DNA of 64,000 bases from Candidatus Borrarchaeum weybense (GTDB taxonomy: Archaea; Asgardarchaeota; Sifarchaeia; Borrarchaeales; Borrarchaeaceae), in contig JAHQJS010000006.1 in NCBI GenBank assembly GCA_019057385.1, positions 900,536 through 964,535 on the forward strand, written 5' to 3'. The position numbers and the translations under genes were made by a program. This document shows, one piece after another, positions 18,337-59,525 of the stretch; position 1 is the stretch's first letter; the number at the start of each line of letters is the position of its first letter. Under the pieces are notes generated by a model. That model searched no databases, was not told the origin of the DNA, and worked only from the letters and a program-made list of their open reading frames with translations.

Positions 18337-19065
18337 TTAGGACGAATCTATCGACATTCCTCTTCCATCTAAGACGTAATAATTTTCTTTGGCACAGTTT
18401 ATACAGACAGGATTGCCTTCTATCACCCTTGCCCTAGTCTCCATGACGTTCTCTCCACAGATTGAACATCTTACTGAAGCAAATATGGGGGCATACTCAG
18501 GCAGGTTGATTTTCATGCGTTTTATCCTGAACATTTCATCTGCTGATTTACTTAATTCGTTGATGGACATTTCATGGAATAGTCTCATCATTCGTTCATG
18601 CTCTTCTGGTGTCGCCTCTTCCCTCCTGGTAACGATCTTATCCCATAGTCCATATGCCTCAGGATATTCCTCCCCAATAGAATCTTCAAAATCGGGGTCT
18701 AAGGCAATTCGTATTGCCGTTCCGTCTCTTTTCGCCACCGTTACTGCACTCTTACCAAAATCACGGTATATAAGGGCATTGTTTCCAAAGGAGCACCCAG
18801 TCACCATCTGAACACCGTCGCTGAAACAATTGTTTGTCTCAACGATTGCTATGACTTCCTCCATGCCAGTGCTTTTTATTCCCAATTCTCTCACCGCAAT
18901 ATAGCCTGCTATCACGCCGTAGGTCATGTAGTTACAAAAATGCCCATGCAACTCACCAGCCTTCTCATGCAGCCTTCTAAGATTTCCAGTTGCAATTAAC
19001 TTCTCAATCTCTTTTCTAACCGGATTTCCAATCTCCATTTCTTTTTTTTCTGCCACTCTTATCAA
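18337..19065 (-). CDS. fmdE: FmdE/FwdE family protein with C-terminal Zn finger
   Basis: HGHFC, ETNNCFSDGVQMVTGCSFGN, CSICGE...CINC. Confidence 0.88.
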   Translation of the reverse strand: MIRVAEKKEMEIGNPVRKEIEKLIATGNLRRLHEKAGELHGHFCNYMTYGVIAGYIAVRELGIKSTGMEEVIAIVETNNCFSDGVQMVTGCSFGNNALIYRDFGKSAVTVAKRDGTAIRIALDPDFEDSIGEEYPEAYGLWDKIVTRREEATPEEHERMMRLFHEMSINELSKSADEMFRIKRMKINLPEYAPIFASVRCSICGENVMETRARVIEGNPVCINCAKENYYVLDGRGMSIDSS

Positions 19066-19680: not shown

Positions 19681-19731
19681 CGTAAAACAATTAGTGGAAA
19701 AAAAATTGTTAAGTTGAAATCGTTCTTAAGA

Positions 19732-21738
19732 TTATCTATCGTGGTCTGCGGGGCATTGATCAAGACTCCAGTAGATTACGGGCACATCCGCTATGCTACA
19801 TCCCTTCAAAAGCTCAGGAAGCAATACAAGAATAGGACCAAAGGTTGGTCCTCTTATTTTAGCTCTATATGGAGTGTTGGCCCCTGAACTAACTAGATGA
19901 AAACATAGTTCTCCTCTGGCACTTTCGATACAATTTATTGCTTCTCCTTCAGGCACACGTTTTAACGGAGCAAATTTCTTCCTAAATGGCCCTGGAGGTA
20001 GGTTATTTAAGGCTTCTTCAATCATATTAAGGCTTTCCCCGATTTCTGATATCCTAGCTTCCATTCTATGGTATGCATCACCTTCCTTGAATGTGGGGAT
20101 ATCAAAGTCTAGTTTACCATAAGCTTCGTAAGGATGACTCTTTCTCACATCAAAGTTTATGCCTGAAGCCCTGGCGTTAGGTCCTGTAACATCATTTTCT
20201 ATTGCAACATCCGAAGAAATTTTTCCAATATCCATTGTCCTTGCCTTGAATGAAGAGTTATCCATCATAAGATTGTTATACATGTTTACTCTCTGTTTCA
20301 TATAATTTATAGTCTCCAAAGCGAGTTCCGTAAAATCATCTGTTAAATCCCGGAAAACTCCACCTGGAACATTGTATACGTGATATATACGACCCCCGGT
20401 TAATTCATCTAGCAGACGAAGAAACCTCTCTCTATCGCCCCACGTAATCATTTGCATTGTTTTAAACCCTACTGCTCCAGTGACTAACCCTAAGTTAAGA
20501 AGGTGGCTTTGTATTCTTGAAAGTTCTGCCTGTATCACTCTAAGATACTTGGCTCTCTCTGGAACCTCTAAACCTGCAATTTTTTCAACGGCACCAATAT
20601 AGGCAATCTCGTAAGATGCGCCGTCAAGTACACAGACACGTTGAATCAACATCGCATTCTGATACCATGTTCTATATTCCATGAGTTTTTCAAACCCTCT
20701 GTGCAGGTATCCCACTTGAGGTGTAGCTTCTATCACACTTTCTCCATTAACCTTCAATTTAAGGTTAAAGTTTCCAGATCCAGCATGCTGTGGACCGAAG
20801 GGAATTAGCATTTCATTCGAATTAAGCGTTTCTTGCTTGCTAAATGGTGGAACTTTCAGTTTTTGAGTAAAAGTAGCGTCTTCTTCTTTACCTGTATATC
20901 CGTTTTGAATGTGTTTCATAGCAGCAACTATTGCGACACCTATGGGTTCTGGTCTGGGTGGACATCCTGCTATCCATACGTCAACAGGAATATACTTATC
21001 GATTTGTTTTATGGTGTTGTAACTGTCCCAGTATGTGCCACCACTCATTGGGCAATTTCCGAATGACAGTACAAACTTTGGCTTAGGCATCTGTTGATAG
21101 ATTCTAATAATTCTTCTGAGAGTTTTTACTGTAACATACCCACCTATAAGAAGTACATCTGCATGTCTTGGACTATCAGCTACTAAAAGCCCAAATCTCT
21201 CCATATCAAATCCGCTACTTACCCAAGGTACAGCTTCAATAAAACAACAACCTGTAAAGTAATTTAAAACCCATAGGCTCCTTGAACGTGCCCAACTCGC
21301 AATGTCAGAAATCTTCGTATCCTCAGGATGCATTAACTCAGGAGGTTGAGCTAGCATTTCTGGCGAAAATATAAATTTACTTTTATCGGGTCCAATTACT
21401 ACAGGGAAGTTTGTCATTTGAAGCGACTCTGTTGGACACACATCTACGCATAATCCACAGAAGCAACACCTAGAAAAATCTAGTTGGGGGTAATATGCAA
21501 CGTCTTTCTGGGGGGATTGATCTGACGCAGCTCTATCAACCATTTCTATAGCGCCATTTGGGCAAACCTTAGCGCATAACTTACAACCTTTACATGTTTC
21601 TAAGTTTAATATGTGCCGACCTCTAGAATTCTTTGCAATTGGCATTTCAGGAGGGAAATTATATGTAATTGGCTTACTAGTTAATTGAGTAAGCCCTGTT
21701 TTTAGGACGGTAAGCCCATTTTTTAACTTTTCAAACAT
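19732..21738 (-). CDS. Fused NuoI-like ferredoxin + NuoB-like small subunit + NuoD-like large subunit (MBS/Mbx-like head, no NiFe site)
   Basis: Two CxxCxxCxxxCP; TGCCFIE, GNCPMSGG, GCPPRP; FGPQH, GYLHRGFEKL, RVCVLD, ESARGE, DQCPADHDR. Confidence 0.88.
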   Translation of the reverse strand: MFEKLKNGLTVLKTGLTQLTSKPITYNFPPEMPIAKNSRGRHILNLETCKGCKLCAKVCPNGAIEMVDRAASDQSPQKDVAYYPQLDFSRCCFCGLCVDVCPTESLQMTNFPVVIGPDKSKFIFSPEMLAQPPELMHPEDTKISDIASWARSRSLWVLNYFTGCCFIEAVPWVSSGFDMERFGLLVADSPRHADVLLIGGYVTVKTLRRIIRIYQQMPKPKFVLSFGNCPMSGGTYWDSYNTIKQIDKYIPVDVWIAGCPPRPEPIGVAIVAAMKHIQNGYTGKEEDATFTQKLKVPPFSKQETLNSNEMLIPFGPQHAGSGNFNLKLKVNGESVIEATPQVGYLHRGFEKLMEYRTWYQNAMLIQRVCVLDGASYEIAYIGAVEKIAGLEVPERAKYLRVIQAELSRIQSHLLNLGLVTGAVGFKTMQMITWGDRERFLRLLDELTGGRIYHVYNVPGGVFRDLTDDFTELALETINYMKQRVNMYNNLMMDNSSFKARTMDIGKISSDVAIENDVTGPNARASGINFDVRKSHPYEAYGKLDFDIPTFKEGDAYHRMEARISEIGESLNMIEEALNNLPPGPFRKKFAPLKRVPEGEAINCIESARGELCFHLVSSGANTPYRAKIRGPTFGPILVLLPELLKGCSIADVPVIYWSLDQCPADHDR

Positions 21739-21744
21739 TTCTCA

Positions 21745-22227
21745 TCATCTCTCTTCATTATGAACTAATGAATAATTTTTCTCAACGAATTCTCTCCAAT
21801 TGAAATCTTTTCTAAAGGGGGGAATCTCAACGGGATCCTCCAAGAATAGTGGTTTTAGAATTTGATTTCCTTCAAAGGAAACCCCAAAGAGTTCCCACGC
21901 CTCTCTCTCATGCATAGCAGCATTAAGCCAGAGTTTCGACAAGCTTGGAATTGTAGGATTATCTCTCGGGATCTCAGTTGCTACCTTAACGTATATGTCT
22001 TCATGGAGTTTATGCACGAGGAAATATATCTCAAAAGTTCCTCGTTCTATCCAATCGACAGCGCTAATCGTCAATAATCTCTGGAATCCTTGATTTCTCA
22101 AGTACTCAGCAGCTTGGAAGTAATTAGGCTTTGAAACTCTAACATAATTTATATTTTCGTCAACAGAATACTCTGCTTTCATCTGAGTTTGAAGATATTT
22201 AAAAATCGCTTGAATTTCTTCTTTCAT
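21745..22227 (-). CDS. NuoC/MbxK-like subunit
   Basis: ISAVDW, IPSLSKLW.NA..HEREAWELFGVSFEG, PPFRKDF. Confidence 0.88.
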   Translation of the reverse strand: MKEEIQAIFKYLQTQMKAEYSVDENINYVRVSKPNYFQAAEYLRNQGFQRLLTISAVDWIERGTFEIYFLVHKLHEDIYVKVATEIPRDNPTIPSLSKLWLNAAMHEREAWELFGVSFEGNQILKPLFLEDPVEIPPFRKDFNWREFVEKNYSLVHNEER

Positions 22228-22299
22228 GGTGTGTACTCCCTTTTAAGATCTTTTTTGGTAGTTTCAGTCAATATATTTCAAGTAAGTTATATCTACTTT

Positions 22300-23526
22300 T
22301 CACACAGACTTCTTAAGGAATAATGCCACATCTTCTATGGTCAATTCGGTATCAGTAACCGTTGCTGAAGGGGCACGAGACTCTACATTTATACCTGGTT
22401 CATAATCAAAGCGTGGAGCTACTTCCTTGTTCAGCATAAAGATCAACTTAGCTAATGGCAATTCCATAGGACATGCATCCTGACACTGACCACAATTTAT
22501 GCAAGAGTCCATAACGTGCACGACTCGTACCATAGGCCATAGAGGATTAGGTGGTATCTCTCCACCGCTTACGTAACCTCTATCCGCCTCAAGCATGCAA
22601 TGCTCACAAAAACATATAGGACAAGCATCTCTACACCCGAAACACTTGATGCACTGACTAAATTGGGAGAACCAATAATTAAATCGTTCATCAGCACTCA
22701 TCGCTTTGAATGGAGCGAAATCTTTCTCTTGCCACTCTTGAGCTAGTTTTATTGCTAGTGCATCTTGTTTTCTTCTAGTTTCTATTGCTTCAGAATTAGG
22801 TTTTTCCACTTTAATAGAACCTGCTTCAATCGCGCTCTCTATAAGATTAGATCCTTTGTCGGAACAAACCTCGATAAACGTCATTTTTTCGTCTGTATTT
22901 CCCCATCTCCCACAAGCTATATCCGTCATAGTTGGAATCTTGATTTCACATCTCCTACAATTTTCTCTTCTGCCATATCCTTCTTCTTCTAATACTTTTA
23001 GATCTCTTTCTACTTCTGTTTCGTCTTTTAATCTTATCTTAAGTTTTCCATCTTCAATTTCTTCTTTGATAACATCTGAGGGATTTACACCAAATTTTTC
23101 TTTGAACATTTCTTTGGCTGTTACAGGTGAGAACGTACCAGTACAATTTAGTCCAATAAGAAGTAAATTTTCAAGATGCATGACATCTCTTTTGGTTAGT
23201 TCAATGATCGCCCTAGCATCACACGGTTTGCAGACTACAGCAAGTTTGCGATTATAAACACCCGCCATGTATTCTTTAAGATAGCGGGGAATATTTATAG
23301 AACTCGAATGCAAAACTCCTGCAGTATCTTTTATTTCTTCTGGATCAGTAATTAGCACAGGTATACCATCATATCTGTCGCCATCCCTTGCTTTTATAGC
23401 TAGTACTGCATCTACAAGTCCACTTTCTAATGCAAACTTCAGAAGTGCCGTAACTGCACCACCACAGTCTGCCTTATTTCGATTTTCCTCATTTGAAGCC
23501 CAGGCGAGATACATATCACCATTCAT
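22300..23526 (-). CDS. fdhB: Formate dehydrogenase beta subunit (FrhB family, F420-type)
   Basis: CGGAVTALL, KPCDARAI, GLNCTGT, RRENCRRC, two C-terminal 4Fe-4S motifs. Start placed at the ATGA overlap with the fdhA stop. Confidence 0.9.
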   Translation of the reverse strand: MNGDMYLAWASNEENRNKADCGGAVTALLKFALESGLVDAVLAIKARDGDRYDGIPVLITDPEEIKDTAGVLHSSSINIPRYLKEYMAGVYNRKLAVVCKPCDARAIIELTKRDVMHLENLLLIGLNCTGTFSPVTAKEMFKEKFGVNPSDVIKEEIEDGKLKIRLKDETEVERDLKVLEEEGYGRRENCRRCEIKIPTMTDIACGRWGNTDEKMTFIEVCSDKGSNLIESAIEAGSIKVEKPNSEAIETRRKQDALAIKLAQEWQEKDFAPFKAMSADERFNYWFSQFSQCIKCFGCRDACPICFCEHCMLEADRGYVSGGEIPPNPLWPMVRVVHVMDSCINCGQCQDACPMELPLAKLIFMLNKEVAPRFDYEPGINVESRAPSATVTDTELTIEDVALFLKKSV

Positions 23527-25553
23527 TGTTCTACCTCCATTCTTACAGCACATACTTTGAATTCAGGCATTTTGCACTTGGGGTCAAAGGCTGGGTTTGT
23601 TAATACATTGGCTGGTGAATCGCCGAAGTGAAAGGGCGTGAAAACCATCCCTTGAGGCACATCTTCAGTGATCCTTACCTTAGCTTTAATGCTACCCCGC
23701 CTCGTTTTCAAAACAACCCATCCCCCATTGGTGGTTTCCAGTTTTATTGCGTCTTTAGGATTAATCTGAACAAAATTACTAGGCACTTCTGCATTTAATG
23801 CGTCAGTTCTCCTAGTCATCGTCCCAGTATGATAATGGAAGATGCTTCTTCCAGTAGTCAGAACATAAGGATATTCTTCATCTGGCAATTCAGCTGGAGG
23901 TTTGTACTCCACTACTTGGAAGTGACCAAGACCATCAGGTGTATTAAACTTTTTTACAAACATTGTAGGTGTCCCTGGGTGATCTTCAGAAGGACAAGGC
24001 CATTGAATCCCTCCTACTGTTTCCTCTATCCTTTCGTAAGTTAATCCCGCATACTGGGGAACGCATTTTCTTATCTCTTCGAATATATCCCTGGGACTTG
24101 CATAACTGAATTTATCCTTAAAGCCCATCTTTTCAGCCAAATCACGTATTATGCGCCAATCAGGCTTAGCCTCGCCAGGAGGATCAATCACTTTATTTAT
24201 CTTTTGAACTCTTCTATCAACCCATGCATGTACTCCTTCCCTCTCGACCCATGTAGCTGCTGGTAATACCACATCTGCAAGTTTTGCTGTTTCTGTCATG
24301 AATATGTCTTGAACTACTAGAAAATCGAGGTTCTCAAGAGACTGCCTTACACTATTTGTATCAGGTCCTGACATCATAGGATTTGTTCCTACCACATAAA
24401 TAGCCTTACACTTATGCACGATGTCCATGTAGGTTAGACCGGGGTTAATTGGAAGATTTTCTACTCCCCAGCGCTCTTGAAAGAACTCTGCTGCCTCCTG
24501 ACCTACCCGTTTGAAACCAGGGTAGAAGACATTAACGCAGCCCATATCCCCTGATCCCTCTCCATTTATTTGCCCCCTCATAGGGTTAACGCCAGTTCCT
24601 GGCTTTCCAATATGGCCAGTCAAAAGTGCTAGATCGGCAAGGACCTTGACATTATCCGCTCCAGTAGTGTGCTGAGTTATACCTTCATCAAATTGGATGC
24701 ACCCCCTCTCTGCATTGGCGTAGGTAAGTGCAGCCTCTCTGATTTTTTCTATAGAAATACCTGTGATCTGTTCGATTTGTTTTAAGTCAATCGTGGAAAG
24801 GAAATCGCGCAAATCACTGAAACCAGCAGTTCTTGATTCTATAAATTCTCTATTTTCAAGTCCTTCATTAATAATAATACTCATTATGCCATTTATCAAG
24901 GCAACATCTGTGCCAGGTCTCAATTGTAAGTGAATATCTGCTAAATGTCTTGCAGTAACTGTTTTTCGTGGATCTATTACAATTACCTTGGCTCCCTTCT
25001 TCTTCGCTCTAAGCACCCTTTTTGCGATCATAGGAAAGGTTTCTTTGATATTGACCCCAGCAATGACAAAGCAATCCGCGAGTTCATAATCTAATTGAGA
25101 GATCTCCATAACACCCGAGCCAACTGTGGGTCCAAGCCCTGCAACTGTTGCGGAATGACAGAATCTGGCACAATACTCGACGTTGTTGGTACCCATGACG
25201 ATCCGAGCAAACTTCTGAAGCACATAACTAGCCTCGTTCGTGGTCTTTCCTGAACCCAGTATACCAAAGGATTCGGGTGAAGTATCCTTTAGAGCCGCAG
25301 AAACTACATCAAGTGCCTTCTCCCAAGTAATTTCCTCAAATTTGCCGTTATTTCTAAGCAATGGCTTTTTAAGTCGGTCTTCGCTATATAAAAATAAGTA
25401 AGATCTTCTACCTTTAGGACAATTCGTCCCTTCGTTTACAGGATGTTCCTTCCATGGTTCTATGCCTATTATTTTGCCGTCCTTGACCACAAGATACATC
25501 CCACATCCAGATCCGCAATATGGGCATATCGTTGGTACATACTGCATATCCAT
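23523..25553 (-). CDS. fdhA: Formate dehydrogenase alpha subunit (Mo/W-bisPGD, Cys-type)
   Basis: CPYCGSGC...CPKG, CARFCH, PMRGQ, GIQWPC, LTTGR, PEFKVCA. Confidence 0.93.
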   Translation of the reverse strand: MDMQYVPTICPYCGSGCGMYLVVKDGKIIGIEPWKEHPVNEGTNCPKGRRSYLFLYSEDRLKKPLLRNNGKFEEITWEKALDVVSAALKDTSPESFGILGSGKTTNEASYVLQKFARIVMGTNNVEYCARFCHSATVAGLGPTVGSGVMEISQLDYELADCFVIAGVNIKETFPMIAKRVLRAKKKGAKVIVIDPRKTVTARHLADIHLQLRPGTDVALINGIMSIIINEGLENREFIESRTAGFSDLRDFLSTIDLKQIEQITGISIEKIREAALTYANAERGCIQFDEGITQHTTGADNVKVLADLALLTGHIGKPGTGVNPMRGQINGEGSGDMGCVNVFYPGFKRVGQEAAEFFQERWGVENLPINPGLTYMDIVHKCKAIYVVGTNPMMSGPDTNSVRQSLENLDFLVVQDIFMTETAKLADVVLPAATWVEREGVHAWVDRRVQKINKVIDPPGEAKPDWRIIRDLAEKMGFKDKFSYASPRDIFEEIRKCVPQYAGLTYERIEETVGGIQWPCPSEDHPGTPTMFVKKFNTPDGLGHFQVVEYKPPAELPDEEYPYVLTTGRSIFHYHTGTMTRRTDALNAEVPSNFVQINPKDAIKLETTNGGWVVLKTRRGSIKAKVRITEDVPQGMVFTPFHFGDSPANVLTNPAFDPKCKMPEFKVCAVRMEVEQ

Positions 25554-25559
25554 AGTTAT

Positions 25560-26000
25560 TCACCTTTTTATCGGATTTGGTCCTAGCTCTTTTATTGTCT
25601 GACTAAAACTTGAAACGGTATCTGCTACTTTCTGTCCTTCAGATGCTCCTATCCATTCTAACCTGAGCCTCTCGCTACCGATTCCTATTGCATCAAGAAA
25701 GAGTTTCACTAATGTAACTCGCCTTCTAGTCCAGAGGTTACCTTTTATGTAATGACAATCTCCAGGGTGACAGCCTGCAATCAGAACACCATCTGCACCC
25801 TTAGCGAAGGCCCCTAGTATCAGTGGCACGTTTACTCTTCCTGAGCACATAACCCTAATAATCCGGATGTTGGAAGGATAACTTATTCTAGAGATGCCAG
25901 CCAAATCTGAGGCGGAATAAGAACACCAGTTACAAAAGAAGCCTATAATCTTAGGTTCGAATTTTTTTTCGAGATGAGTTTCAACCTTCACTTCAGACAT
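25560..26000 (-). CDS. mvhD: MvhD/FlpD 2Fe-2S subunit
   Basis: FFCNWCSY, RVMCSGR, GCHPGDCHY. Confidence 0.93.
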   Translation of the reverse strand: MSEVKVETHLEKKFEPKIIGFFCNWCSYSASDLAGISRISYPSNIRIIRVMCSGRVNVPLILGAFAKGADGVLIAGCHPGDCHYIKGNLWTRRRVTLVKLFLDAIGIGSERLRLEWIGASEGQKVADTVSSFSQTIKELGPNPIKR

Positions 26001-26144
26001 TTAAGTCACCATATCCCTAACTAATAGTTGGTATCTATATTACAAATTGTAACTTTTTATGACAACTCGATCTAATATTTTTAAAAGTTATTTAACTAAT
26101 CGTTTCAAATTGTTATAGTGTAATCGTTCATTACATAAACTTAT

Positions 26145-26247
26145 TATATAAGTATTATTGTTCTGAGCGCGTAGTATTCCGTTGGCATATTCAAAGACTC
26201 AAAGAAAAGAAAAAAATGAGGTAACATGTTGATAAAAAGATAATAGT
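26145..26247 (-). promoter_or_regulatory. Promoter region of the mvhD-fdh operon, homologous to 19171-19272
   Basis: Shared blocks TATATAA.TATTA, GCGCGTA.TATT, TGTT.AT.AAAAGATAAT. Confidence 0.55.
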
Positions 26248-26413
26248 GCTATTTAAAAAGTTAAATCCTTTTGTAGTGAAAGTGCGATGAAAATAAGGAT
26301 TCCTAATATGTTAGAGAGTCAACCTTCTCATGAAGTTTCGTCTGAAAGGTTTCTCAATAGTAGGGTCAATTTCTCCTTAAGAAGTTCAAGATGAGGGGAC
26401 GAAAATAATATTT

Positions 26414-27805
26414 TTAGACCATTTTGCGGGGATCAAGTAGATCATCGATGTCTCCCTTAAGTTCAATTCCCATTTCTGAGATAACTTCTTTTATCGTTTT
26501 ATTTGATTTATAAGCAATTTGAACTATCTCAGAGGCTTTATCGTATCCTATCTGCGGAATCAGATTTGTTACAATCATTAGGATTCTTTCTAAGTGTGTT
26601 TTTATTTGTGCCGTGTTCGCTTGCAACTCTTCCAAACAGTTTATCACAAAAGAGTTAAGAGTTCCAGCAAGAATTAAAACTGATTCAAGGAGATTCACTA
26701 TCATCAGAGGTTTGGTAACGTTTAAATCAAGAATACTACCGTATCCTTCCGCATAAGAAATGGCGGTATCGTTTCCGATGACTTGTAAACAGACTTGTAT
26801 TAACGCTTCAGATTGAGTTGGATTGATTTTACCAGGCATTATTGAGGAACCAGGTTCGTTAGCAGGGAGTATTAATTCGTTTAATCCCGCTCGGGGGCCA
26901 CTTCCCATCCAACGAATATCATTCGCCATTTTTAAGCATGAAAGGGCTAAAAGTCGTAGCACACCACTCGTTTTCACAATTGCGCTATGTGAAGCAATCC
27001 CTTCAGCCTTTACTGGATTAGTTCGAAAAGGAAATCCAGAAATGGCTTTTAAATGAGATGCAGTTAATTTTCCAAAATCCTTATGGGTTCCAATTCCTGT
27101 GCCTAGTGCAGTACCTCCAATCGGAATAGAATACAGTTCTTCGCAAGCATCATTTAATCGCATCTGATTGACATTAAGCTGCCGTAAATAAACGCTGAAT
27201 TCAGTCGATAACGGGATGGGGACAGCATCTTGAAGATGCGTGCGTCCTACTTTGACAATACCATCGACCCCCTCAATTTTCCGTTTTAGACTTTTTCTTA
27301 GGTTATCTATTGCAGGAAATAATTTTGCATGAAATAATTCCAAAGTAGAAAGGTGCATACTCGTTGGAACTACATCATTAGAAGATTGACCTTTGTTTAC
27401 GTGATCATTCGGGTGAACTGGAAACTTTTTTCCCAGTTCATGCCCTAGAATTTCATTTGCTCTGTTCGCTAGGACTTCGTTTGCATTCATGTTAATTTGA
27501 GTTCCGGAGCCCGTTTGGTAGACATCAAGTGGAAAATGATCCAAATGTTTTTCTTCAACAAGAATCTCATTAATCGCTTGAAGAAGTGCGTCACCTTTTT
27601 CTTTGTCAATTTCGCCCAATTCAAGATTTGCTCGTAGGCAGGCTTTTTTTACCTTTACTAGAGCTAAAATAAAAGATTTTGGAAAAGTCTTTCCACTTAT
27701 TTGAAAGTTCTGGATCGCTCTTTGAGTGTTAACTCCCCAGTATGCATTTATAGGGACTTCTACCTCTCCTAAAACGTCACGTTCAGTTCTTGTTTCACCC
27801 TTCAT
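26414..27805 (-). CDS. fumC: Class II fumarate hydratase
   Basis: QTGSGT, HPNDHVN.GQSSND, GRTHLQDA, GSSIMPGKINP. Confidence 0.93.
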   Translation of the reverse strand: MKGETRTERDVLGEVEVPINAYWGVNTQRAIQNFQISGKTFPKSFILALVKVKKACLRANLELGEIDKEKGDALLQAINEILVEEKHLDHFPLDVYQTGSGTQINMNANEVLANRANEILGHELGKKFPVHPNDHVNKGQSSNDVVPTSMHLSTLELFHAKLFPAIDNLRKSLKRKIEGVDGIVKVGRTHLQDAVPIPLSTEFSVYLRQLNVNQMRLNDACEELYSIPIGGTALGTGIGTHKDFGKLTASHLKAISGFPFRTNPVKAEGIASHSAIVKTSGVLRLLALSCLKMANDIRWMGSGPRAGLNELILPANEPGSSIMPGKINPTQSEALIQVCLQVIGNDTAISYAEGYGSILDLNVTKPLMIVNLLESVLILAGTLNSFVINCLEELQANTAQIKTHLERILMIVTNLIPQIGYDKASEIVQIAYKSNKTIKEVISEMGIELKGDIDDLLDPRKMV

Positions 27806-27820
27806 AATTATCCCGGCTAA

Positions 27821-28582
27821 CTACAGCATTTTTCGAATCCGTTGGATCGCGGTTCCTGGCTGTACGCCCTTTGGACAAACGACCGAGCAAGCAAATATCT
27901 TTTCACACGCAGGAACACCATCTTCTTTAGCTACTCGTTTAAGCATCTCATCACGATGTTCTTCTGATAAACGAGTATCTGCTATAAACCTATCAGCTTT
28001 CGCTAATTGTGCAGGCCCTAAATAGTTTTTATTTTGAGCCTCAACAGGACAAGTCCAACACAGACCACAGAGGATACAATACACAAGATGTTCAATTTCT
28101 TTTATTTCATTTGGGGCTTGTTGAGATTCTGGTTGTTCATCTTTCCAGCCACGTGTGAAATATGGTTGTATTTCTCGATAAAACTGCCAGAATCGTTCCA
28201 TATCTACAATTAGATCTCTGATAACTTTCATATTCGGCATAGGTTCAACTAGTATTTCAATTTCTGGATCCCAGTCTTCAGGTACATCTCCAAAGGTTAA
28301 GTCAGGGATTTGTTGATGAGTTTTAATTCCTTTGACTGTAGATACCTGGGTCTTACAAGCTAGAACTGGAAATTTATTTACGGTTACTCCACACGACCCA
28401 CAGATAGCTCCTCTGCACGAATAACGAAAGGCAAAAGTAGAATCGAAACGATCTTGAATATAATACAGCGCTTCCAGAACAGTCATGCCTGGGGAAATGG
28501 GTACTGAATATCGCTCATACCTTGGTTTAGCGTTTCTGTTCTCCTGTCGATAAACGATAAAAGTTCTTTCTTTTACCATCAA
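27821..28582 (-). CDS. sdhB: Succinate dehydrogenase/fumarate reductase Fe-S subunit
   Basis: [10 protein letters not shown]...[32 protein letters not shown]. Confidence 0.9.
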
Positions 28583-30303
28583 TACACACGCTCCTTAACT
28601 TCAAAAATGCCTAATTTGACAGGCTTAGTTTCCAATTTCAATCCACCATCAGCTGAACGATAAACAAGAGAGTGGCATAGGAACTCCTCGTCAGAGCGAC
28701 GCGGAAAGTCAACCCGATAATGTCCTCCTCTGCTTTCACGCCTCCAAAGTGCACCATAAGTAGTTACTTCGGCAATATCAAGCATATTACGCAATTCTAA
28801 TGTGTGTTGTAAACCATAATTGAACTTTCTATCAGTTGTTGAAACATGAACATTCAAGAAATCTTTTTGTAAATGTCTTATTGTGTTTAATGCTTTTGTC
28901 AATCCTTCTTCGGTCCTAAAGACACCTACGAGCGTGTTCATAGTCGTTCCCATAGCGTCCTTAATTTCGATCGGTTTTTTCCCATCATTTTTCTCCCATT
29001 GGTCTAATAATTGCTCAGTTTTTTGCAATGTCAATTCTTCTGCCTTTTTTACATCTTTTGTGGAAAGTGTCCTTTGTATGCCTTTTTTTAAGAGTTGTTT
29101 CGAAACATATCTTCCAAACACCACCGTTTCCAGTAGTGAATTGCCTCCTAATCTGTTTGCTCCATGTACTGAGATACATGAGGCCTCTCCAATAGCATAT
29201 AATCCTGGCAATGGGGTTTCACCAAAGTCTCCCCCATACTTCGAGGCTATTCCTCCCATGCTATAGTGTTGACCAGGCTGGACGGGGATTGGTTCATCAA
29301 TCGGGTCGATTCCGGCAAAGAACATCGAAATTTCCCTTATTCCAGGTAACCGTTCTTTAATTCTTTCAGCACCAAGATGTGTTAAATCGAGATGGACATA
29401 TTCATTTTCAAATGCGCGTCCTTCGAGTTTTTCTGTGTCGATTGCTCTTGCTACAATGTCGCGAGGTGCTAACTCCATGGCTTTAGAAGCATATTTCTTC
29501 ATAAACCGTTCGCCTTCTGTATTAAATAAGAAACCGCCTTCTCCTCTCGCCCCTTCTGTGATTAAAATATTAGTTCCATAAAGCGTTGTTGGGTGGAATT
29601 GCACGAACTCACAATCTTGCATTGGAACACCTGCCCGAAACGCGATTCCTAAACCATCGCCTGTATTTATAAGCGCATTAGTTGACTTATCATAAACTCG
29701 TCCATATCCACCAGTTGCAAGAATGACAGTCTCTAATTCGGACCTGAATATAACAAGTTCTCCCGAGTTTAGATCCAAAGCGATTAGCCCTGCAACACTT
29801 TCACCAACAGTAATAAGATCGATGACGAAATACTCGTCGAAGAATTTCACACCTCGTCGAGTACCTTGCTCATAAAGAGTATGTAATAATGCATGACCAG
29901 TACGATCTCCAGCATAACACGTTCTTGGAAATCCAGCGCCACCAAACGGTCTTTGTGCAATAAGACCTGATTCTAAACGCGAAAATGGCGTCCCCATACT
30001 TTCTAATTCAATTACTACTTTAGGAGCTTCCTCACAAAGTAACATAGCCGCATCTTGATCTGCAATGTAATCTGACCCATACACTGTGTCATAGGCATGC
30101 CGTTTCGGCGTGTCGTCTTTACCCGCCTCGGTATTTTTTAAAGCAGCGTTAATTCCTCCTTGAGCAGCACCAGAATGACTTCTCACTGGATAGACTTTGC
30201 TGATAACTGCAACATTCCATCCTCCTTCCGAAAGTCCTAGCCCTACTCTCAGACCACTCAACCCTGCCCCCACAACTAACGCATCAAATTCTTCTATTCT
30301 CAA
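28579..30303 (-). CDS. sdhA: Succinate dehydrogenase/fumarate reductase flavoprotein
   Basis: [17 protein letters not shown] (covalent-FAD His), [30 protein letters not shown]. Start moved to TTG 30303 behind an AGGGGG RBS. Confidence 0.92.
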
Positions 30304-30373
30304 TAAATAACCCCCTAAATGAAAATCTTTTAGGTTTATAGTCAAAGATCGATTCTTATGGCAATTTAATATG

Positions 30374-30868
30374 TTAAATTTCTTCAGGATATGCAATCTT
30401 TCCAAGGATTTTATCAAAATTGAAATACAGTACATTAGCTTCTGGCAAATGTTCTTTAAAGAATGATAAATCGTCTCTTGAAATAGCTAAAAACATGAAC
30501 ACGGATTTTGTATGTTCTTTAATCTGCTGATTCATTCTTGTTAAAGCCACAGAAACAGTCTGTCTCACTTCGTCAGATGGAATAGAAAAATCATCAACAC
30601 AATAAATTAGGTTATTTTCCATTGCTTCTATTTCTGCATTAATCGTCTCAAGAAGTGTTCTTGCTTTTTCGTGACGAAATATGATTTCTTCATACACCAT
30701 ATTTGGATATAATTTTGACAATATTTTCTTATAGAACCCCTCAAGATTGTTTTTTAGCCAGTGGGTTCTACCAGATCCATACGCACCACACAATAAATAT
30801 GTGCGAGACATACCCTTCTCAAGAGCGTTTAAAAATTCCATTTCAAATTCATGAATTTGATATTCCAT
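30374..30868 (-). CDS. Hypothetical small P-loop-like protein
   Basis: [12 protein letters not shown] (Walker A-like) and IYCVDD (Walker B-like). Confidence 0.55.
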
Positions 30869-49740: not shown

Positions 49741-50865
49741 CTACGATTTTTTTGAACTCTCCATTTTTTTATCTGCTAATCGGCGCAAAGTTGTGCCGCC
49801 TTTTTCTGTAATTGGTTCTTTTGTGATCATTTTTTCTCTGACGGCACCGTCAAAAATTTCTTTGCCTTTTTCTGTTCTAGTGAAGACCGTAGACCATCCA
49901 GCAGGTGTGCCTATGCTTCCAACACTTATATCGGCATACCACGCAGTGAGATCTTCACATGAATGACAACCACTTCTTACAGCTTCTGAAGTTTCCTCTA
50001 GGGGAATGGTTTTCGCTTCCCCTCCGTCTTTTGGAAAGATACGCAACGCACCCTTTTTGATATCCATTTTACGTATTTGATTTACAGTCAGCCCTGTCTT
50101 TTCTTGGACAAGTTTATGTAATTTCGTTGCATCAAAGTTTTCCATGCAGAACAGGCCAATGGTCAACGTGATGAGGTTAGCTGGGCGGATATCCACACCG
50201 TCTAGAGCAGATTGAAGTTTTCTCACACCTAATGTTTGACAGGGAGTTCCAACAAACGCTAGACGAAGCCAGTCTTCGCCAACAGGATGTTGGGCTAATA
50301 ATTCCTCTACGACATCCCTATATTGTGCAAGAGAAGAGATATTTGGACTAAGTGAGTAACGGGTACCGGCAGATTTCAACAATTCCTCATAGGACGTTAT
50401 GATTTTCGGCTGAGGAATCCAAGGATTTTCTTCGCTTGGTACGGATACGATGGCTCCATCAATGAGACCATGTTGAAGTGCATATGCTATAATCGTAGAA
50501 ACAATGCCACCGTCTTGTGCAATCTCCGCAATCTCTGGTACTTCTGTCTTAGCTTTATAAAGGTGGACATAATTACCAAGGACATCTTCAGAGCCAAATA
50601 ATTCTTGCATGCGTGGTGTAAGGGAATCCGTAACAGGGCAGCCGAAATAACAGAGTTTACACTCAATACATTTACCTATTGGCGGTTCTCCCTCAGGAAC
50701 CTCCCCAGGGCGTTCTTGAAGAGTTGGAACATCATCAACAAACTTAATAACCTGTGTTGGACACACAGAAACACAACTGCCACAACCAGTACACATTCCT
50801 TTGTCAATCACGTCAGCCTTTAAATCTTCAAAGGTGCCGACTTTTAGTTCAGTTTGTACAGCCAT
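49741..50865 (-). CDS. FrhB/FpoF-family F420-interacting subunit with N-terminal ferredoxin
   Basis: CTGCGSCVSVCP, CIECKLCYFGCP, QDGGIVS, GTPCQ, GLFCMENF, CHSC, ADISVGS. Confidence 0.9.
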   Translation of the reverse strand: MAVQTELKVGTFEDLKADVIDKGMCTGCGSCVSVCPTQVIKFVDDVPTLQERPGEVPEGEPPIGKCIECKLCYFGCPVTDSLTPRMQELFGSEDVLGNYVHLYKAKTEVPEIAEIAQDGGIVSTIIAYALQHGLIDGAIVSVPSEENPWIPQPKIITSYEELLKSAGTRYSLSPNISSLAQYRDVVEELLAQHPVGEDWLRLAFVGTPCQTLGVRKLQSALDGVDIRPANLITLTIGLFCMENFDATKLHKLVQEKTGLTVNQIRKMDIKKGALRIFPKDGGEAKTIPLEETSEAVRSGCHSCEDLTAWYADISVGSIGTPAGWSTVFTRTEKGKEIFDGAVREKMITKEPITEKGGTTLRRLADKKMESSKKS

Positions 50866-50892
50866 TTTAGGTCACTCCTTCTAAAATCATTT

Positions 50893-51258
50893 CTATAATA
50901 GGGCGTATAAATAATCATCGCCTGATTCCCCAACAATGTTGACTATATTTAACTTTTTCAGGGCGACCAAGTGTTGGAGAATCAATTTTGGTTCTAAATT
51001 TGTTACTTTGGAAATTTCTTCGATTGAAGAAGTTCCTTTTTCGCGAAGTACCTGAGAGATTAGTTCTCGCTCAATTTCATCTTTGAGTATTTTGTCTAAA
51101 AGTTCTTCAAATTCTTCTTCTGTAATTTTGTTCTCCTTTAAGAGATGCTCACCTTTGCCTATAAGCCATCGAGTTCTTTCGTTTTTAAATATTGCTGCGC
51201 TAGCCTCAAGAACAGCTTTTTTGTCAACATTCTCTTCAGATTTTAATTTCGCCTTCAT
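50893..51258 (-). CDS. Small winged-helix protein overlapping mvhD
   Basis: RTRWLIGK, SIEEISKVTNLEPKLILQHLVAL. Confidence 0.65.
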   Translation of the reverse strand: MKAKLKSEENVDKKAVLEASAAIFKNERTRWLIGKGEHLLKENKITEEEFEELLDKILKDEIERELISQVLREKGTSSIEEISKVTNLEPKLILQHLVALKKLNIVNIVGESGDDYLYALL

Positions 51259-51721
51259 CTACAACAATTCCTCCTGTTGCGGTTATACCAAGTGGACTCG
51301 GTCCTAATTCTTTAATGTCATCTACCATTTCTCTCACTACCTTACCAAATTGTTCTCCCTCAGATGCAGATACCCATTCAAGGCGTAGACGTTTTTCATG
51401 CATACCCATTTTTCGCAGAAACTCTCTTAAGAGTAAATATTTTCTATAAGCTCTGTAATTGCCACCAATGTAGTGACAATCGCCTTCATGACATCCTGCA
51501 ATTAGAACCCCATCTGCACCATATCTGAATGCATTAAGGACAAGTTGAGGGTCTATCCTTCCAGTACACATCACTCGAACGATACGGATATTGGTTGGGT
51601 ATTGTACTCTGCTAGTACCCGCAAGGTCTGCTCCTGCGTATGAACACCAATTACAAAGGAATCCGATGATTTTTGGCTCAAAATCGATAGCTTCTTTTGG
51701 CATTTCTTGTACTTTTACCAT
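51236..51721 (-). CDS. mvhD: MvhD subunit
   Basis: FLCNWCSYAGAD, RVMCTGR, GCHEGDCHY. Confidence 0.93.
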   Translation of the reverse strand: MVKVQEMPKEAIDFEPKIIGFLCNWCSYAGADLAGTSRVQYPTNIRIVRVMCTGRIDPQLVLNAFRYGADGVLIAGCHEGDCHYIGGNYRAYRKYLLLREFLRKMGMHEKRLRLEWVSASEGEQFGKVVREMVDDIKELGPSPLGITATGGIVVDEGEIKI

Positions 51722-51724
51722 TTT

Positions 51725-53488
51725 TTATCCCTCCAATAATGCGGCTCGGACCATTGCGTCCAATTGTATATCTTTGAAGTTCAACATTGTAATCGCTCCA
51801 GATGGACAAGCAGAACCGCATGAACCACATCCTTTACATAAAGCCTCAATAACTTTAGATATTCTCTTTCCTTCAGGTTTGTCTTCAAAAACGATCGCAC
51901 TAAACTCACAAGAACCTTGACACACCCCGCAGCCCGTACAGTAGTCCTCATTTATTACGGAAATCGTGCTTTCAACTTCTACCGTGCCTTGAGCCATCGG
52001 GGAACATGCTTTAGCTGCTGCACCAAAGGCTTGAGAAACACTATCAGGCACATCTTTTGGTCCCTGTGTGCAGCCAGCTAAATAGACTCCGTCTGTAACA
52101 GAGTCAAGAGGAGCTAATTTGGGATGAAGTTCTTGGAAAAATCCATCTGCAGACATCGTTATGTGAAGTTTAGATGCAATATGAGCTGCAGAATCATCAG
52201 GAACCATACCTGTTGCTAAAACAACGAGATCAACGGGAATTTCTATATTCATTCCTGATAATGTGTCATAACTACGTACAGCTAAAGGATACTCGGAACC
52301 TTGAGTGACTGAAACTAATGGGATCTGATCCTCAGTATATCTGATCATTGTTGATCCTGCCTGACGGAAATCAGTAAAAAGTTCTTCATGACCTTTGCCA
52401 TGAGTTCTTAAATCTCTGTACAAAACGAAAATATCTGTATTTGGTTCCTTTTCAAGAATCTCCATACTTGTGGCTATCATGCCGGTGCAACAAACTCTAG
52501 AACAATATTTGTTCGGTTTTTTTCCTTCAGGAACGGTGTCTTCATTTTGTCGTGATCCAACGCAGGAAATGAATGCTATTGATCTTGGAGTTTTCCCCTC
52601 AGCTGGAGTTACAAGGTTGCCCTGAGTCGGACCATCATCCCTCAATAACTGATGCAATTCTAGTAATGTCAATACATTTGGGTGGTTGCCATAGGTAAAT
52701 TCGCCAGTAGGGTCGTATGGTTGGTAGCCAGTTGCGACTACGATTGTACCGAATTCAATTTCCTTTTCCTCGGCTTGTTCTCGAATGATAGCTCTGTAAT
52801 TTCCAATATAACCTTCTATATCTGCAATTTCAGCTGAAAGGTATGGAATAATGTTTGGATGTTCCATAACATCCTTTATTAAAGGATTCAATAATTCTTG
52901 GGGATCATCAAATGTAGGATATACTTTGTACAACTGTGCCATTTTTCCGCCAAAATTGGGGGTCTTTTCGACTAAATGGACCTTAAAGCCTCTATCTGCA
53001 ATATTCTTTGCGGCACTAAGCCCTGAAATTCCTCCTCCTATTACCAAAGCTTCACCTTTCACATCGACCATGTGTTGCGGTAGCGGCTCTAATAAGCGTG
53101 ATTTGGCTACTGCCATTCTTACTAGATCTTTAGCCTTTTCGGTAGCTTTTTCTGGTTGATTACTATGAACCCATGAGACATGCTCGCGAAGATTTGCCTG
53201 CTCAAAAAGATATTTATTAAGCCCTTTTTCCTCTATAACTTTCCTGAAGGTTGGCTCATGCATTCTAGGGCTACATGATGCTACCACAACTCTATTCAGT
53301 TTAAATTCATCGATATCTTCTTTGATCATAGTTTGTCCTCTATCAGAGCACATATAGAGCTGAGGTCGCGCTACTGCGACATTCGGCAGTTTTGATGCAT
53401 ATTCTGCCACTTCATCTACGTTTACTACACCACCAATGTTGATACCACAATTGCAGACATAAACACCAATTCTAGGTTCTTCTTCCAT
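51725..53488 (-). CDS. hdrA: HdrA-like flavoprotein (N-terminal domain + FAD domain + C-terminal ferredoxin; no inserted ferredoxin)
   Basis: GVYVCNCG, ASCSP, CVGSR, CSRVCC, CTGCGVC, CKGCGSC. Confidence 0.88.
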   Translation of the reverse strand: MEEEPRIGVYVCNCGINIGGVVNVDEVAEYASKLPNVAVARPQLYMCSDRGQTMIKEDIDEFKLNRVVVASCSPRMHEPTFRKVIEEKGLNKYLFEQANLREHVSWVHSNQPEKATEKAKDLVRMAVAKSRLLEPLPQHMVDVKGEALVIGGGISGLSAAKNIADRGFKVHLVEKTPNFGGKMAQLYKVYPTFDDPQELLNPLIKDVMEHPNIIPYLSAEIADIEGYIGNYRAIIREQAEEKEIEFGTIVVATGYQPYDPTGEFTYGNHPNVLTLLELHQLLRDDGPTQGNLVTPAEGKTPRSIAFISCVGSRQNEDTVPEGKKPNKYCSRVCCTGMIATSMEILEKEPNTDIFVLYRDLRTHGKGHEELFTDFRQAGSTMIRYTEDQIPLVSVTQGSEYPLAVRSYDTLSGMNIEIPVDLVVLATGMVPDDSAAHIASKLHITMSADGFFQELHPKLAPLDSVTDGVYLAGCTQGPKDVPDSVSQAFGAAAKACSPMAQGTVEVESTISVINEDYCTGCGVCQGSCEFSAIVFEDKPEGKRISKVIEALCKGCGSCGSACPSGAITMLNFKDIQLDAMVRAALLEG

Positions 53489-53500
53489 TTCTTTTTCCTC

Positions 53501-54781
53501 CTAAATTGCTTTTAAACTAGCCCGCATCGCTGCCGCACTCCCTTGTCCTACACTGTCTGGGATATCTTTCACTGATTCGCAGACACCTGCCATGTATACT
53601 CCCTCAATTTTTGTGTCAACGGGCAAGATACGTGATGCCTCCTCAAAGAAGCCGTACTGATCTGTAGGCAAATTTAGAATTTTACCGACTTCACTAGAGT
53701 TTTGTGATGGCACAAGACCTATAGAAAGAACTACCATATCGAATTCTTCTTGATTCAACTCTCCAGTTTCAGTATTTTCAACTCGCACAAGAAGGTTTTT
53801 TGTAGTTTCGTCCTCGACGATCTCCCCAACTTTTCCACGTACAAATTTTACACCAAATCTGGTTTGTGCGTTTTGATAAAACTCATCGAAGCCCTTTCCG
53901 AAGGCACGGACATCAATATAAAAGATCGTCGTGTCACATCCACCATGAATATGATCTTTGGCTAGAATCGCGTTTTTAATGGCATACATACAACAGACGC
54001 GACTACAATAAGGCATTCCGTGCTCGGGATCTCTTGATCCGACACACTGGAGGAAAGCAATTCTTCGCGGGATTTTTCCATCGGATAATCGGAATACATG
54101 GCCTCCTGCAGGTCCAGATGCTGATAAAAGGCGTTCAAATTCAAGGGAACTCAGTACGTTATCATAGACCCCATAACCATAGTACTTTAGATTTGTCGCA
54201 TCAAAAAGGTCATAACCAGTTGCCACAATAATAGATCCAACATTCACTTCTATTTCTTCGGGCTCTTGATCATATTTGACCGCCCCAGCTTCGCAGATCT
54301 TCTGACAGAGTTCGCATTCTATGCAAGCATCTTTGTCGATCGTATACACCAACGGTACGGCCTGCGGAAAAGGCACATATATAGCTTTTCGAACGCCGAT
54401 TCCTTCATCAAACTCACTAGGAACTTCTACTGGACAGTGAATCGCGCAATTTCCGCAGCCAGTGCATATATTTTCATCAATATATCTGGGCTTTTTCTCA
54501 ATTTTTGCAGTAAAATTGCCAGCAGTACCTGTAACTTCCTTTACTTCGCTATAGGTAAGCAGTTCGATGTGCGGGTGACGAGCAACATCGACCATCTTAG
54601 GAGTTAAAATACACGCAGAGCAGTCAAGGGTGGGAAATGTTTTGTCTAATTGAGCCATGTGCCCCCCGACGCTTGGTGATTTTTCAACAAGATATGTTTT
54701 AATTCCTTGATTTGCTACATCGATTGCAGCTTGTATTCCAGTAACGCCTGCACCTATAACTAAAACATTTTTTTCACTCAA
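53501..54781 (-). CDS. hdrA: Short HdrA-like flavoprotein (FAD domain + inserted ferredoxin only)
   Basis: [45 protein letters not shown]. Confidence 0.88.
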   Translation of the reverse strand: MSEKNVLVIGAGVTGIQAAIDVANQGIKTYLVEKSPSVGGHMAQLDKTFPTLDCSACILTPKMVDVARHPHIELLTYSEVKEVTGTAGNFTAKIEKKPRYIDENICTGCGNCAIHCPVEVPSEFDEGIGVRKAIYVPFPQAVPLVYTIDKDACIECELCQKICEAGAVKYDQEPEEIEVNVGSIIVATGYDLFDATNLKYYGYGVYDNVLSSLEFERLLSASGPAGGHVFRLSDGKIPRRIAFLQCVGSRDPEHGMPYCSRVCCMYAIKNAILAKDHIHGGCDTTIFYIDVRAFGKGFDEFYQNAQTRFGVKFVRGKVGEIVEDETTKNLLVRVENTETGELNQEEFDMVVLSIGLVPSQNSSEVGKILNLPTDQYGFFEEASRILPVDTKIEGVYMAGVCESVKDIPDSVGQGSAAAMRASLKAI

Positions 54782-54799
54782 CTTTTTCTCCTCCTTTAG

Positions 54800-57196: not shown

Positions 57197-57199
57197 CTC

Positions 57200-58081
57200 C
57201 TATCCGATCTTTTCAAGAACCTTGTCCAATTTGATCCGATGCTGGTTAAGACCCAATTCCTCAGCGCTCATTCCCATTCCAAGTCCAATAAGTTCGCTGT
57301 AAGTAAGTGTGGGGATATCGTATGATTCCTTAAATTTTCGTTCTATCATGAGTTGTCCTAGATCAAATTGTAAGAAACAAAGGGGACAAACCGTCACTAC
57401 GCAATCTACTTTAGCTTCTTGAAGTTCCATAAGCCGATGCCTTAGCATTCCATCCGTTACTTCATTGGAAACGTTTCGGAGCAGTCCACCGCAACACCTT
57501 AAACGATATTTGTAATAGACACTTTCGGCGCCTGTAGCCTCTATAAGATCGTCCAAGAAGAAATAACGCTCAGAATAGTCAATTCCAATAACTTCTATGG
57601 GTCTAAACAAATGGCAGCCTGGTCTAGCGCCGACACGCAGGGCATCAAGCGGTTTTACTATCGTGTTTCTGATCTTGTCGACGCCTACATCATCATTGTA
57701 GATTTCGGCTAAATGGCGAACTTTTACGGTGCCTTTGTATTCTTTGTCTACCTTAGCGAGAATTTCATTTACCTTTACCAAAGTTTCGGGCTCTTCGCTC
57801 AAGATAGCCGCTGTTCTATCAAGCCCTTCGAAGCATCCATTGCAAGGGGTGCACATCGTGTCTAATCCCATTTCTTCGACGACCGCAAGATTTCTTGCAC
57901 CGATACTGAGCGAGGTAAGATAATCAAGTGAAAGGATACCTACAGGTGCACAACAGGTCCACTCGCCATCTGGTTCGGTAAACTGAACATCTAGTTTTTC
58001 AGCAGTCCTTCTGAGCGAAACTTCATAACTTGGGACTCGCTCAGGAATAAGACATCCTGGAAATAAGGCAAACTCTTTCAT
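57200..58081 (-). CDS. hdrB: Heterodisulfide reductase subunit B (copy 2)
   Basis: FPGC, CCAP, CNGC, RPGCH, CCGG, CPLC..QFD. Confidence 0.9.
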   Translation of the reverse strand: MKEFALFPGCLIPERVPSYEVSLRRTAEKLDVQFTEPDGEWTCCAPVGILSLDYLTSLSIGARNLAVVEEMGLDTMCTPCNGCFEGLDRTAAILSEEPETLVKVNEILAKVDKEYKGTVKVRHLAEIYNDDVGVDKIRNTIVKPLDALRVGARPGCHLFRPIEVIGIDYSERYFFLDDLIEATGAESVYYKYRLRCCGGLLRNVSNEVTDGMLRHRLMELQEAKVDCVVTVCPLCFLQFDLGQLMIERKFKESYDIPTLTYSELIGLGMGMSAEELGLNQHRIKLDKVLEKIG

Positions 58082-58626: not shown

Positions 58627-58647
58627 TTTTTTCTTCTCCTTTTTTCT

Positions 58648-59523: not shown

Positions 59524-59525
59524 TC

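Follow-up and report, generated by a model that had tools for sequence, protein, structure and literature searches.

In the Fpo and Fqo complexes, a flavoprotein of the FrhB family (FpoF or FqoF) feeds electrons into a NuoBCDI-type head without NuoEFG. Fpo is membrane-bound and reduces methanophenazine, and its FpoD is without all four cysteines. We propose the same manner of input for a five-gene unit within a 64,000-nucleotide stretch (hereafter, the window) of the Candidatus Borrarchaeum weybense genome (contig JAHQJS010000006.1, positions 900,536 to 964,535), where genes for the formate dehydrogenase subunits FdhA and FdhB and the connector protein MvhD stand beside a NuoC-like gene and a single gene that fuses NuoI-, NuoB- and NuoD-like domains (Table 1). 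The layout is real, recurrent and uncharacterised, a variant within the superfamily of complex I and MBS (the sulfane sulfur reductase bound to membranes), whose function we infer.

MBS of Pyrococcus furiosus (formerly MBX; 6U8Y, PMC7684303) provides, in MbsN, MbsJ, MbsK and MbsL, the best or near-best solved relative of every part of the head. Both systems have one cysteine and one acidic residue per former NiFe motif, a chain ending at an arginine, and no quinone-binding residues. They differ in that the N, J and L subunits are fused into a single chain here, that the proximal motif is CC here and C..C-G in MBS, and that the input is apparently FdhAB-MvhD here and free ferredoxin in MBS. Furthermore, MBS has an MbsM anchor and an Mrp-like arm, neither of which is found at the locus or unassigned in the source genome. 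Formate hydrogenlyase 1 (FHL-1) of Escherichia coli (7Z0S/7Z0T, PMC9474812) likewise wires a formate dehydrogenase through Fe-S proteins to a NuoI/NuoB/NuoC-D-type head, but has a four-cysteine NiFe site with maturation and the membrane subunits HycC and HycD, and uses HycB as its connector where FdhB and MvhD are found here.

The formate dehydrogenase subunits and MvhD are clearly homologous to those of methanogen FdhAB-MvhD-HdrABC(-Fmd) complexes (7BKB, 8RVU, 9T1S; E-values 1e-226 to 1e-44), but hdrABC is not in the unit, and the MBS-like head takes the genomic place of Hdr in, for example, some bacteria. Within the same phylum and superfamily, many new group 4 and complex-I-like complexes of Asgard archaea, membrane-bound and with NiFe sites predicted to be active, are described by Appler et al. 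(bioRxiv 10.1101/2024.07.04.601786), who also note modularity with Hdr-type peripheral parts; the section consulted makes no mention of a fused I-B-D head or a formate dehydrogenase linkage. No description of these two features was found in the searchable literature, outside whose reach many subscription papers lie.

Identity of the fused head and the formate dehydrogenase trio

A sequence-only reading of the window had described five tightly co-oriented genes in the order mvhD-fdhA-fdhB-nuoC-fused head, and minus-strand open reading frames (ORFs), Pfam matches and gene spacing all bear this out. From mvhD to the fused head, the intergenic distances are 6, -31 (an overlap), 72 and 6 nt; the 72-nt gap between fdhB and nuoC holds a GGGAG 8 nt ahead of the ATG and no T runs of 5 or more. 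The spacing, together with the flanking signals (Table 1), fits a single transcription unit, short of proof. A Kyte-Doolittle 19-mer scan detected no hydrophobic stretch above 1.6 in any of the five proteins.

Among solved structures, the large-subunit domain scores highest against MbsL (6U8Y_L, 297.6 bits), followed by Nqo4 (249), MbhL (203) and HycE (194). MbsJ (6U8Y_J, 169 bits) and MbsK (6U8Y_K, 61 bits) are the best solved relatives of the NuoB-like domain and the NuoC-like protein, respectively, while the NuoI-like domain matches NuoI (8E9G_I, 67 bits) and MbsN (6U8Y_N, 64 bits), the MbsN match spanning residues 4-107 with the N-terminal extension included. An AlphaFold2 model of the fused chain forms a single compact unit (predicted local distance difference test score 85.7, predicted template modelling score 0.91), and its top Foldseek match is 6U8Y_L (template modelling score 0.92, root-mean-square deviation 2.1 A). 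In a quick large-subunit tree rooted on four-cysteine sequences, the fused proteins form one clade (Shimodaira-Hasegawa-like approximate likelihood ratio test, 98) with two arm-linked groups nested inside; this clade groups with other two-cysteine sequences, apart from the four-cysteine ones. Collectively, the alignment scores, the predicted fold and the two-cysteine site support the sequence-only reading of the head as MBS/Mbx-like, neither a quinone-type NuoD nor a four-cysteine hydrogenase.

The large-subunit site reads RVC369VLD372 and, at the C-terminus, DQC662PAD665HDR. This C..D / C..D pattern (RVCVLD and DQCPADHDR-end) compares with C..E / C..D in MbsL (RICVPE and DNCPPDIDR-end); as in MbsL, the first cysteine of each former NiFe pair is retained and the second is replaced by an acidic residue, which is Asp throughout the fused family. 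The domain stops at the arginine of ...DHDR without a cleavable C-terminal extension; the source genome's own group 4 large subunits have four cysteines and C-terminal extensions. Across 63 sequences, the pocket residues C369, D372, C662, D665, H666 and R668 are invariant or nearly so in any gene context, and eight of eight cysteines in the NuoI-like domain are invariant.

The second cysteines of the NiFe motifs are the bridging ligands of the NiFe centre. With Asp at both of these positions, we reject a NiFe hydrogenase on ligands; a quinone-type NuoD we reject on residues, the equivalent of Nqo4 H38 falling in a gap and that of Y87 being Val370. We therefore regard as highly implausible a formate hydrogenlyase-like enzyme that would make or use H2 at an unusual metal site. 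Its wiring from formate dehydrogenase through I and B to D(+C) would mirror the soluble arm of E. coli FHL, with 7Z0S among the matches, and the retained cysteines are the first of each NiFe motif; however, the Asp substitutions hold in the whole family, there is no C-terminal extension for endopeptidase maturation, and MbsL, which has the same pattern, is not a hydrogenase (PMC7684303).

Candidate ligands of the proximal cluster are C164, C165, C229 and C259, with a TGCCFIE motif whose tandem cysteines resemble those of complex I N2. Equivalents of the three MbsJ cysteines (C28, C93 and C123) are invariant in the family, and the source protein carries an additional, adjacent cysteine. The motif is CC in 96 of 117 distinct fused sequences and CG, the MbsJ type, in the other 21. 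This ligand pattern, an MbsL-type pocket with a CC or CG proximal motif, lies between MBS and complex I and makes the modular evolution of complex I directly testable.

When about 220 relatives were aligned, loss of the first retained cysteine was nearly always accompanied by loss of the second, so the pair seems to act jointly. Several bacterial lineages and one fused protein, P0031, have lost both (RINV... with ...AP..DR); the exception among these large subunits is L044, in which the first cysteine is lost alone. In MBS, the retained pair is dispensable for trisulfide reduction (Yu et al., PMC7684303).

FdhA is closest among solved structures to 9T1S_L (4.4e-226) and 7BKB_D (2.3e-189); it carries the active-site C-H in CARFCHSATVAGL and an N-terminal CxxCxxxC. 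It is unique in the source genome, where the next-best paralogue reaches just 164 bits. FdhB matches 7BKB_E (1.4e-110), 9T1S_M and 8RVU_E, and the best solved relatives of MvhD are the MvhD chains of Fdh/Mvh-Hdr complexes (8RVU_F, 1.1e-49; 5ODC_D; 7BKB_F).

Recurrence of the linkage and the proposed electron path

To compare gene contexts, we rebuilt them with a simple ORF caller and phmmer, using queries derived from the window and from genome G103; other neighbours were mostly left unannotated. The gene order is not unique to this assembly. It is repeated in a genome of the same genus (G050) and in four metagenome contigs (L136-L139) whose B domains are 94-97% identical, and linkage between mvhD-fdhAB and the cassette of nuoC and fused head recurs in other Asgard lineages, giving four arrangements in all. 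Besides the source order, these are C-head-mvhD-fdhA-fdhB (G075, L173), a divergent head-to-head layout (L151, L153), and C-head followed by an FrhB-like/CBS gene (L140).

In a sample of 201 Asgard genomes, the fused head is present in 19 and FdhA orthologues (at least 60% identity) in 17. Four genomes combine the head with the 675-aa FdhA orthologue, and the two modules are adjacent in three of them; in the fourth, G028, two contig ends are colinear with the divergent L151 arrangement and have a palindromic promoter element in common with it. That the modules stay neighbours through rearrangements, with proteins about 60% identical, favours a functional tie, short of proof of a physical complex. 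The divergent mvhD/nuoC promoter regions (L151 5238-5299; L026, G028:C205, 25-85) each hold a TATA-like box beside a perfect palindrome, ATTGTGCATATGCACAAT in G028, which is likely a shared operator; no match to it occurs in the 64-kb window.

In the FdhA tree, head-linked genes form a basal grade within which a stand-alone family is nested, so the linkage looks old. That stand-alone Asgard family contains 13 genomes with mvhD-fdhAB, and the fused head was not found in it at the threshold used; the simplest reading of the tree is an old linkage that was lost there along with the head. Fdh-linked heads fall in two clades of the large-subunit tree, which have convergent residues in common at 14 positions, 5 of them in the NuoI-like domain and including Lys-to-neutral changes, although the sequences are too few for statistics and the pattern serves as a lead only.

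We assign a probability of roughly 40% to the reading that the five genes encode one cytoplasmic redox complex, carrying formate electrons via FdhB and MvhD to an MBS-type site where, by analogy only, sulfane sulfur would be the acceptor. Formate would be oxidised at FdhA, a Cys-type Mo/W-pterin enzyme, and electrons would move by way of FdhB, with its Fe-S and flavin cofactors, and MvhD, the [2Fe-2S] connector, into the two [4Fe-4S] clusters of the NuoI-like domain and then the proximal cluster of the NuoB-like domain. They would finally reach a substrate bound where the NuoB-like and MbsL-like domains enclose a pocket, with NuoC/MbsK completing the head. Such a complex would act in solution as a sink or a source of electrons, perhaps reversibly, and with NuoH and the antiporter module absent it would not pump ions. 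What the sequences show is the gene content, the family of every part, the lack of a dedicated arm in the source genome and the recurrence of the linkage; that the proteins associate, which way electrons run and what accepts them are what we infer here.

Precedents exist for both ends of this path. FpoF, the input subunit of Fpo, belongs to the same FrhB family as FdhB and feeds the Fpo head, and in E. coli FHL, FdhF is wired to HycF, HycG and HycE in the same order. At the other end, Yu et al. (2020, PMC7684303) purified the cytoplasmic MBS subcomplex C-MBS (MbsJKLN) and found it active with dimethyl trisulfide, which shows that catalysis is possible for a head that lacks an arm. By analogy with MBS, the most likely acceptor is sulfane sulfur (polysulfide or persulfide); a disulfide, the other acceptor named by the sequence-only reading, would likewise be an assignment by homology. 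The full assignment, a soluble formate-driven sulfane-sulfur (polysulfide or protein-persulfide) reductase with a complex-I-family head, is offered tentatively and may well prove wrong.

Several observations weigh against a single complex. Each module occurs elsewhere without the other: mvhD-fdhAB forms an operon by itself, in genomes where no fused head was found, in one Asgard family (13 of 43 genomes) and in others, and the cassette of NuoC and fused head stands alone without formate dehydrogenase in most cases, so neither module needs the other. The trio to which FdhA, FdhB and MvhD are closely related is docked on HdrA in every solved complex, and the source genome holds about 20 HdrA paralogues and about 14 MvhD domains. 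It also has F420 biosynthesis genes (CofE, CofD-like), and FdhAB might therefore simply reduce F420. The gap between fdhB and nuoC (72 nt; 139 nt in G050) could be the site of an internal promoter. With respect to the acceptor, the proximal motif is CC, the complex-I type, and not the three-cysteine arrangement of MBS, whose ligation has been linked to sulfur reduction (Yu et al. 2020, PMC7684303).

Two modules that are merely co-expressed would account for several of these points. FdhAB-MvhD would then work on an HdrA paralogue, in flavin-based bifurcation or confurcation with formate as in methanogens, and NuoC with the fused head would be a ferredoxin-dependent soluble reductase. This possibility, the main rival, which we judge somewhat unlikely, draws on the Hdr-bound relatives and the abundant HdrA and MvhD domains just mentioned, and on the trio standing alone in 12 of the contexts examined. 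The head, too, is alone in most lineages, with NuoC as its sole universal neighbour (directly upstream, at -1, and co-oriented in 23 of 24 fused-head lineages), and in MBS it is on the NuoI-type subunit that ferredoxin docks (PMC7684303). However, co-regulation alone, though possible, poorly explains why each sampled genome carrying both modules has them side by side, or in a layout consistent with that, in four arrangements and at about 60% identity. Moreover, the trio has no adjacent Hdr genes. The nearest Hdr cluster, 24 kb from the five-gene unit, is self-contained: it brings its own FrhB-like module as well as two MvhD domains and is not visibly awaiting a head. The earlier suggestion that a detachable head docks on the nearby HdrA is thus not supported as stated.

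Electrons could also run the opposite way, in a ferredoxin:CO2 oxidoreductase for syntrophic formate production that would pass them from ferredoxin at the NuoI-like domain through MvhD and FdhB to FdhA, leaving the NuoB/MbsL-like part a structural or regulatory role and no acceptor site. FdhA is the only one in the source genome, the NuoI/MbsN type accepts ferredoxin in MBS, and in the cultured relative MK-D1 ferredoxin electrons have been proposed to be disposed of as formate via a single FdhA (PMC7015854). We nevertheless consider this improbable: the pocket residues of the large subunit are near-invariant in 63 sequences whatever the context, which argues for a working site, and the stand-alone and arm-linked forms would still require an acceptor at that pocket.

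If the assignment as a soluble formate-driven sulfane-sulfur reductase is correct, the unit would be the superfamily's first demonstrated member to operate on formate dehydrogenase input with no membrane part at all, and would provide, in the archaea closest to eukaryotes, a living example of heads swapped between ion pumps and electron-input modules. Wiring of formate dehydrogenase to an MBS-type head would tie Asgard formate metabolism to an acceptor that nobody has considered, sulfane sulfur being the obvious candidate in sulfidic sediments. Formate/hydrogen hand-off is central to models of Asgard syntrophy, and hence to models of eukaryote origin, and this unit carries the genome's only formate dehydrogenase.

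Membrane arms and the portability of the head

The sequence-only reading had called the module membrane-arm-less. For the source locus and genome this holds: no NuoH or antiporter gene lies within the 64-kb window, and the 3 matches to PF00146 and 10 to PF00361 found genome-wide are all on contigs C2, C4 and C7, the window being on C6. All of these genes can be assigned to three complexes that have a NuoB and a NuoD each (Table 1), and the joins across contig ends are backed by G050, the genome of the same genus, in which no contig break separates the pieces. The genome-wide NuoH/antiporter search thus found no orphan membrane arm. For the module as such the description fails, since orthologues 59-79% identical end full arm operons of two architectures.

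Two candidates for an orphan arm were rejected. The first, at the end of C7, is a nuoJ-J-K-L cluster that apparently has no head and is accompanied only by a NuoC; in G050 it is contiguous with the hydrogenase operon of C2. The second, an M-M pair with which C4 ends, is contiguous there with an L-M-M tail.

The fused protein is widespread, occurring in Asgard lineages, Bathyarchaeia, Hecatellales, Thermoplasmata and an Anaerolineae bin. Its cassette terminates nuoA-H-J-J-K-L-M operons in G103, L185, L187 and L195, and Mrp/Mbh-like arms in L174, L176, L177, L179 and L201, which indicates that the head is competent to sit on NuoH. Homologous nuoA-H-J-J-K-L-M arms are found in two genomes: that of G103 (L029 3578-11800) ends with NuoC and the fused two-cysteine head, whereas that of G104 (L130 7078-14264) begins with an unfused four-cysteine B-C-D-I head. 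This looks like catalytic heads swapped on one pump type.

These operons lend some weight to the idea that the head is detachable and would join a membrane arm whose genes lie elsewhere in the source genome, forming a formate-driven ion pump, as does the apparent replacement of the four-cysteine B-C-D-I head of G104 by the cassette in G103. In the source genome, however, all NuoH and antiporter-like genes belong to complexes that have their own NuoB and NuoD, and the best NuoH match to the G103 arm is just 42% identical and part of a four-cysteine hydrogenase. We consider such docking quite improbable there.

Outside the fused clade, the nearest unfused relatives are armless B-C-D-I sets. In a Thermoplasmata contig (L049, 3185-13700), an unfused two-cysteine B-(C)-D-I head adjoins HdrA-MvhD, HdrB, HdrC, HdrB and HdrA, in the position that Mvh hydrogenase occupies in methanogens. 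Among more distant relatives, a large bacterial family of MBS-like operons (L052-L115; K-M-M-H-B-C-D), from sulfur-oxidising Gammaproteobacteria, Bacteroidales, Spirochaetes and others, has full arms and joins its NuoI in one chain to a GltD/SudA-like NAD(P)H flavoprotein of about 450 aa. The GltD-like-NuoI fusions and the HdrA-MvhD neighbour suggest that heads of this superfamily accept varied electron-input modules at the NuoI end. The complex-I-like catalytic head thus emerges as a portable cassette that stands alone, on two kinds of pump, or on formate dehydrogenase.

At one further locus (L025, G104:C105, 677-7003), the cassette is co-oriented behind two class V aminotransferase (cysteine desulfurase-like) genes and a NifU-like gene. 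These neighbours may serve Fe-S assembly for the head, or may be a weak hint of a persulfide substrate.

Coordinates and neighbouring genes

Table 1. Features of the five-gene unit in the window, and membrane complexes elsewhere in the source genome
Feature	Position	Strand	Description	Basis
mvhD	25560..26000	-	146 aa, [2Fe-2S] connector protein	Pfam FlpD/MvhD 2.9e-52
fdhA	23523..25553	-	676 aa, Cys-type molybdo/tungstopterin formate dehydrogenase catalytic subunit	Pfam Molybdop_Fe4S4 + Molybdopterin + Molydop_binding
fdhB	22300..23553	-	417 aa, FrhB/FdhB-family flavo-iron-sulfur subunit	Pfam FrhB_FdhB_N/C + Fer4, 2x[4Fe-4S] tail
NuoC/MbsK-like gene	21745..22227	-	160 aa	Pfam Complex1_30kDa 1.6e-28
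Fused head gene	19732-21738	-	668 aa	Pfam Fer4 dicluster + Oxidored_q6 (NuoB) + Complex1_49kDa (NuoD)
Fused head, residues 1-135	21334..21738	-	NuoI/MbsN-like domain, two [4Fe-4S] motifs	Pfam Fer4 families
Fused head, residues 136-300	20839..21333	-	NuoB/MbsJ-like domain, proximal [4Fe-4S] cluster	
Fused head, residues 301-668 + stop	19732..20838	-	MbsL-like large-subunit domain	
T8 run	19698..19705	-	Candidate archaeal terminator, ~30 nt past fused-gene stop	Read from sequence
Candidate promoter	26001..26413	-	AT-rich, 413 nt, TATA-like elements, upstream of mvhD	Read from sequence
Complex 1	Start of C7; tail continues at end of C4		A-B-C-D-H-I-J-K-M-M-L operon	
Complex 2	C2; J-J-K-L start + divergent NuoC at end of C7		Four-Cys hydrogenase	
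Complex 3	C7:245-254 kb		Four-Cys B-CD-H...K-L complex	

The source genome is unusually rich in Hdr-type parts, with about 20 HdrA-matching ORFs, about 14 with an MvhD domain, and at least 10 HdrB matches. The Hdr supercluster of the window (49741-60104, minus strand) comprises hdrC-hdrB-hdrC-hdrB, a 798-aa HdrA with a fused MvhD domain, HdrA-like genes of 426 and 587 aa, a separate MvhD, a 121-aa ORF and an FrhB-like gene.

Directly upstream of mvhD (26414-30435, minus strand) lies an operon for an SdhA/FrdA-like flavoprotein, an SdhB-like Fe-S protein and a class II fumarase, in which no membrane-anchor gene was recognised; it may encode a soluble fumarate reductase beside the formate module. 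The Sdh/Frd-like and fumarase neighbours are also present in G050. On the other side, a 666-nt gap downstream of the five-gene operon leads to a gene (18337-19065, minus strand) for an FmdE-family protein with a C-terminal DksA/TraR-type zinc finger, the position of which is kept in G050.

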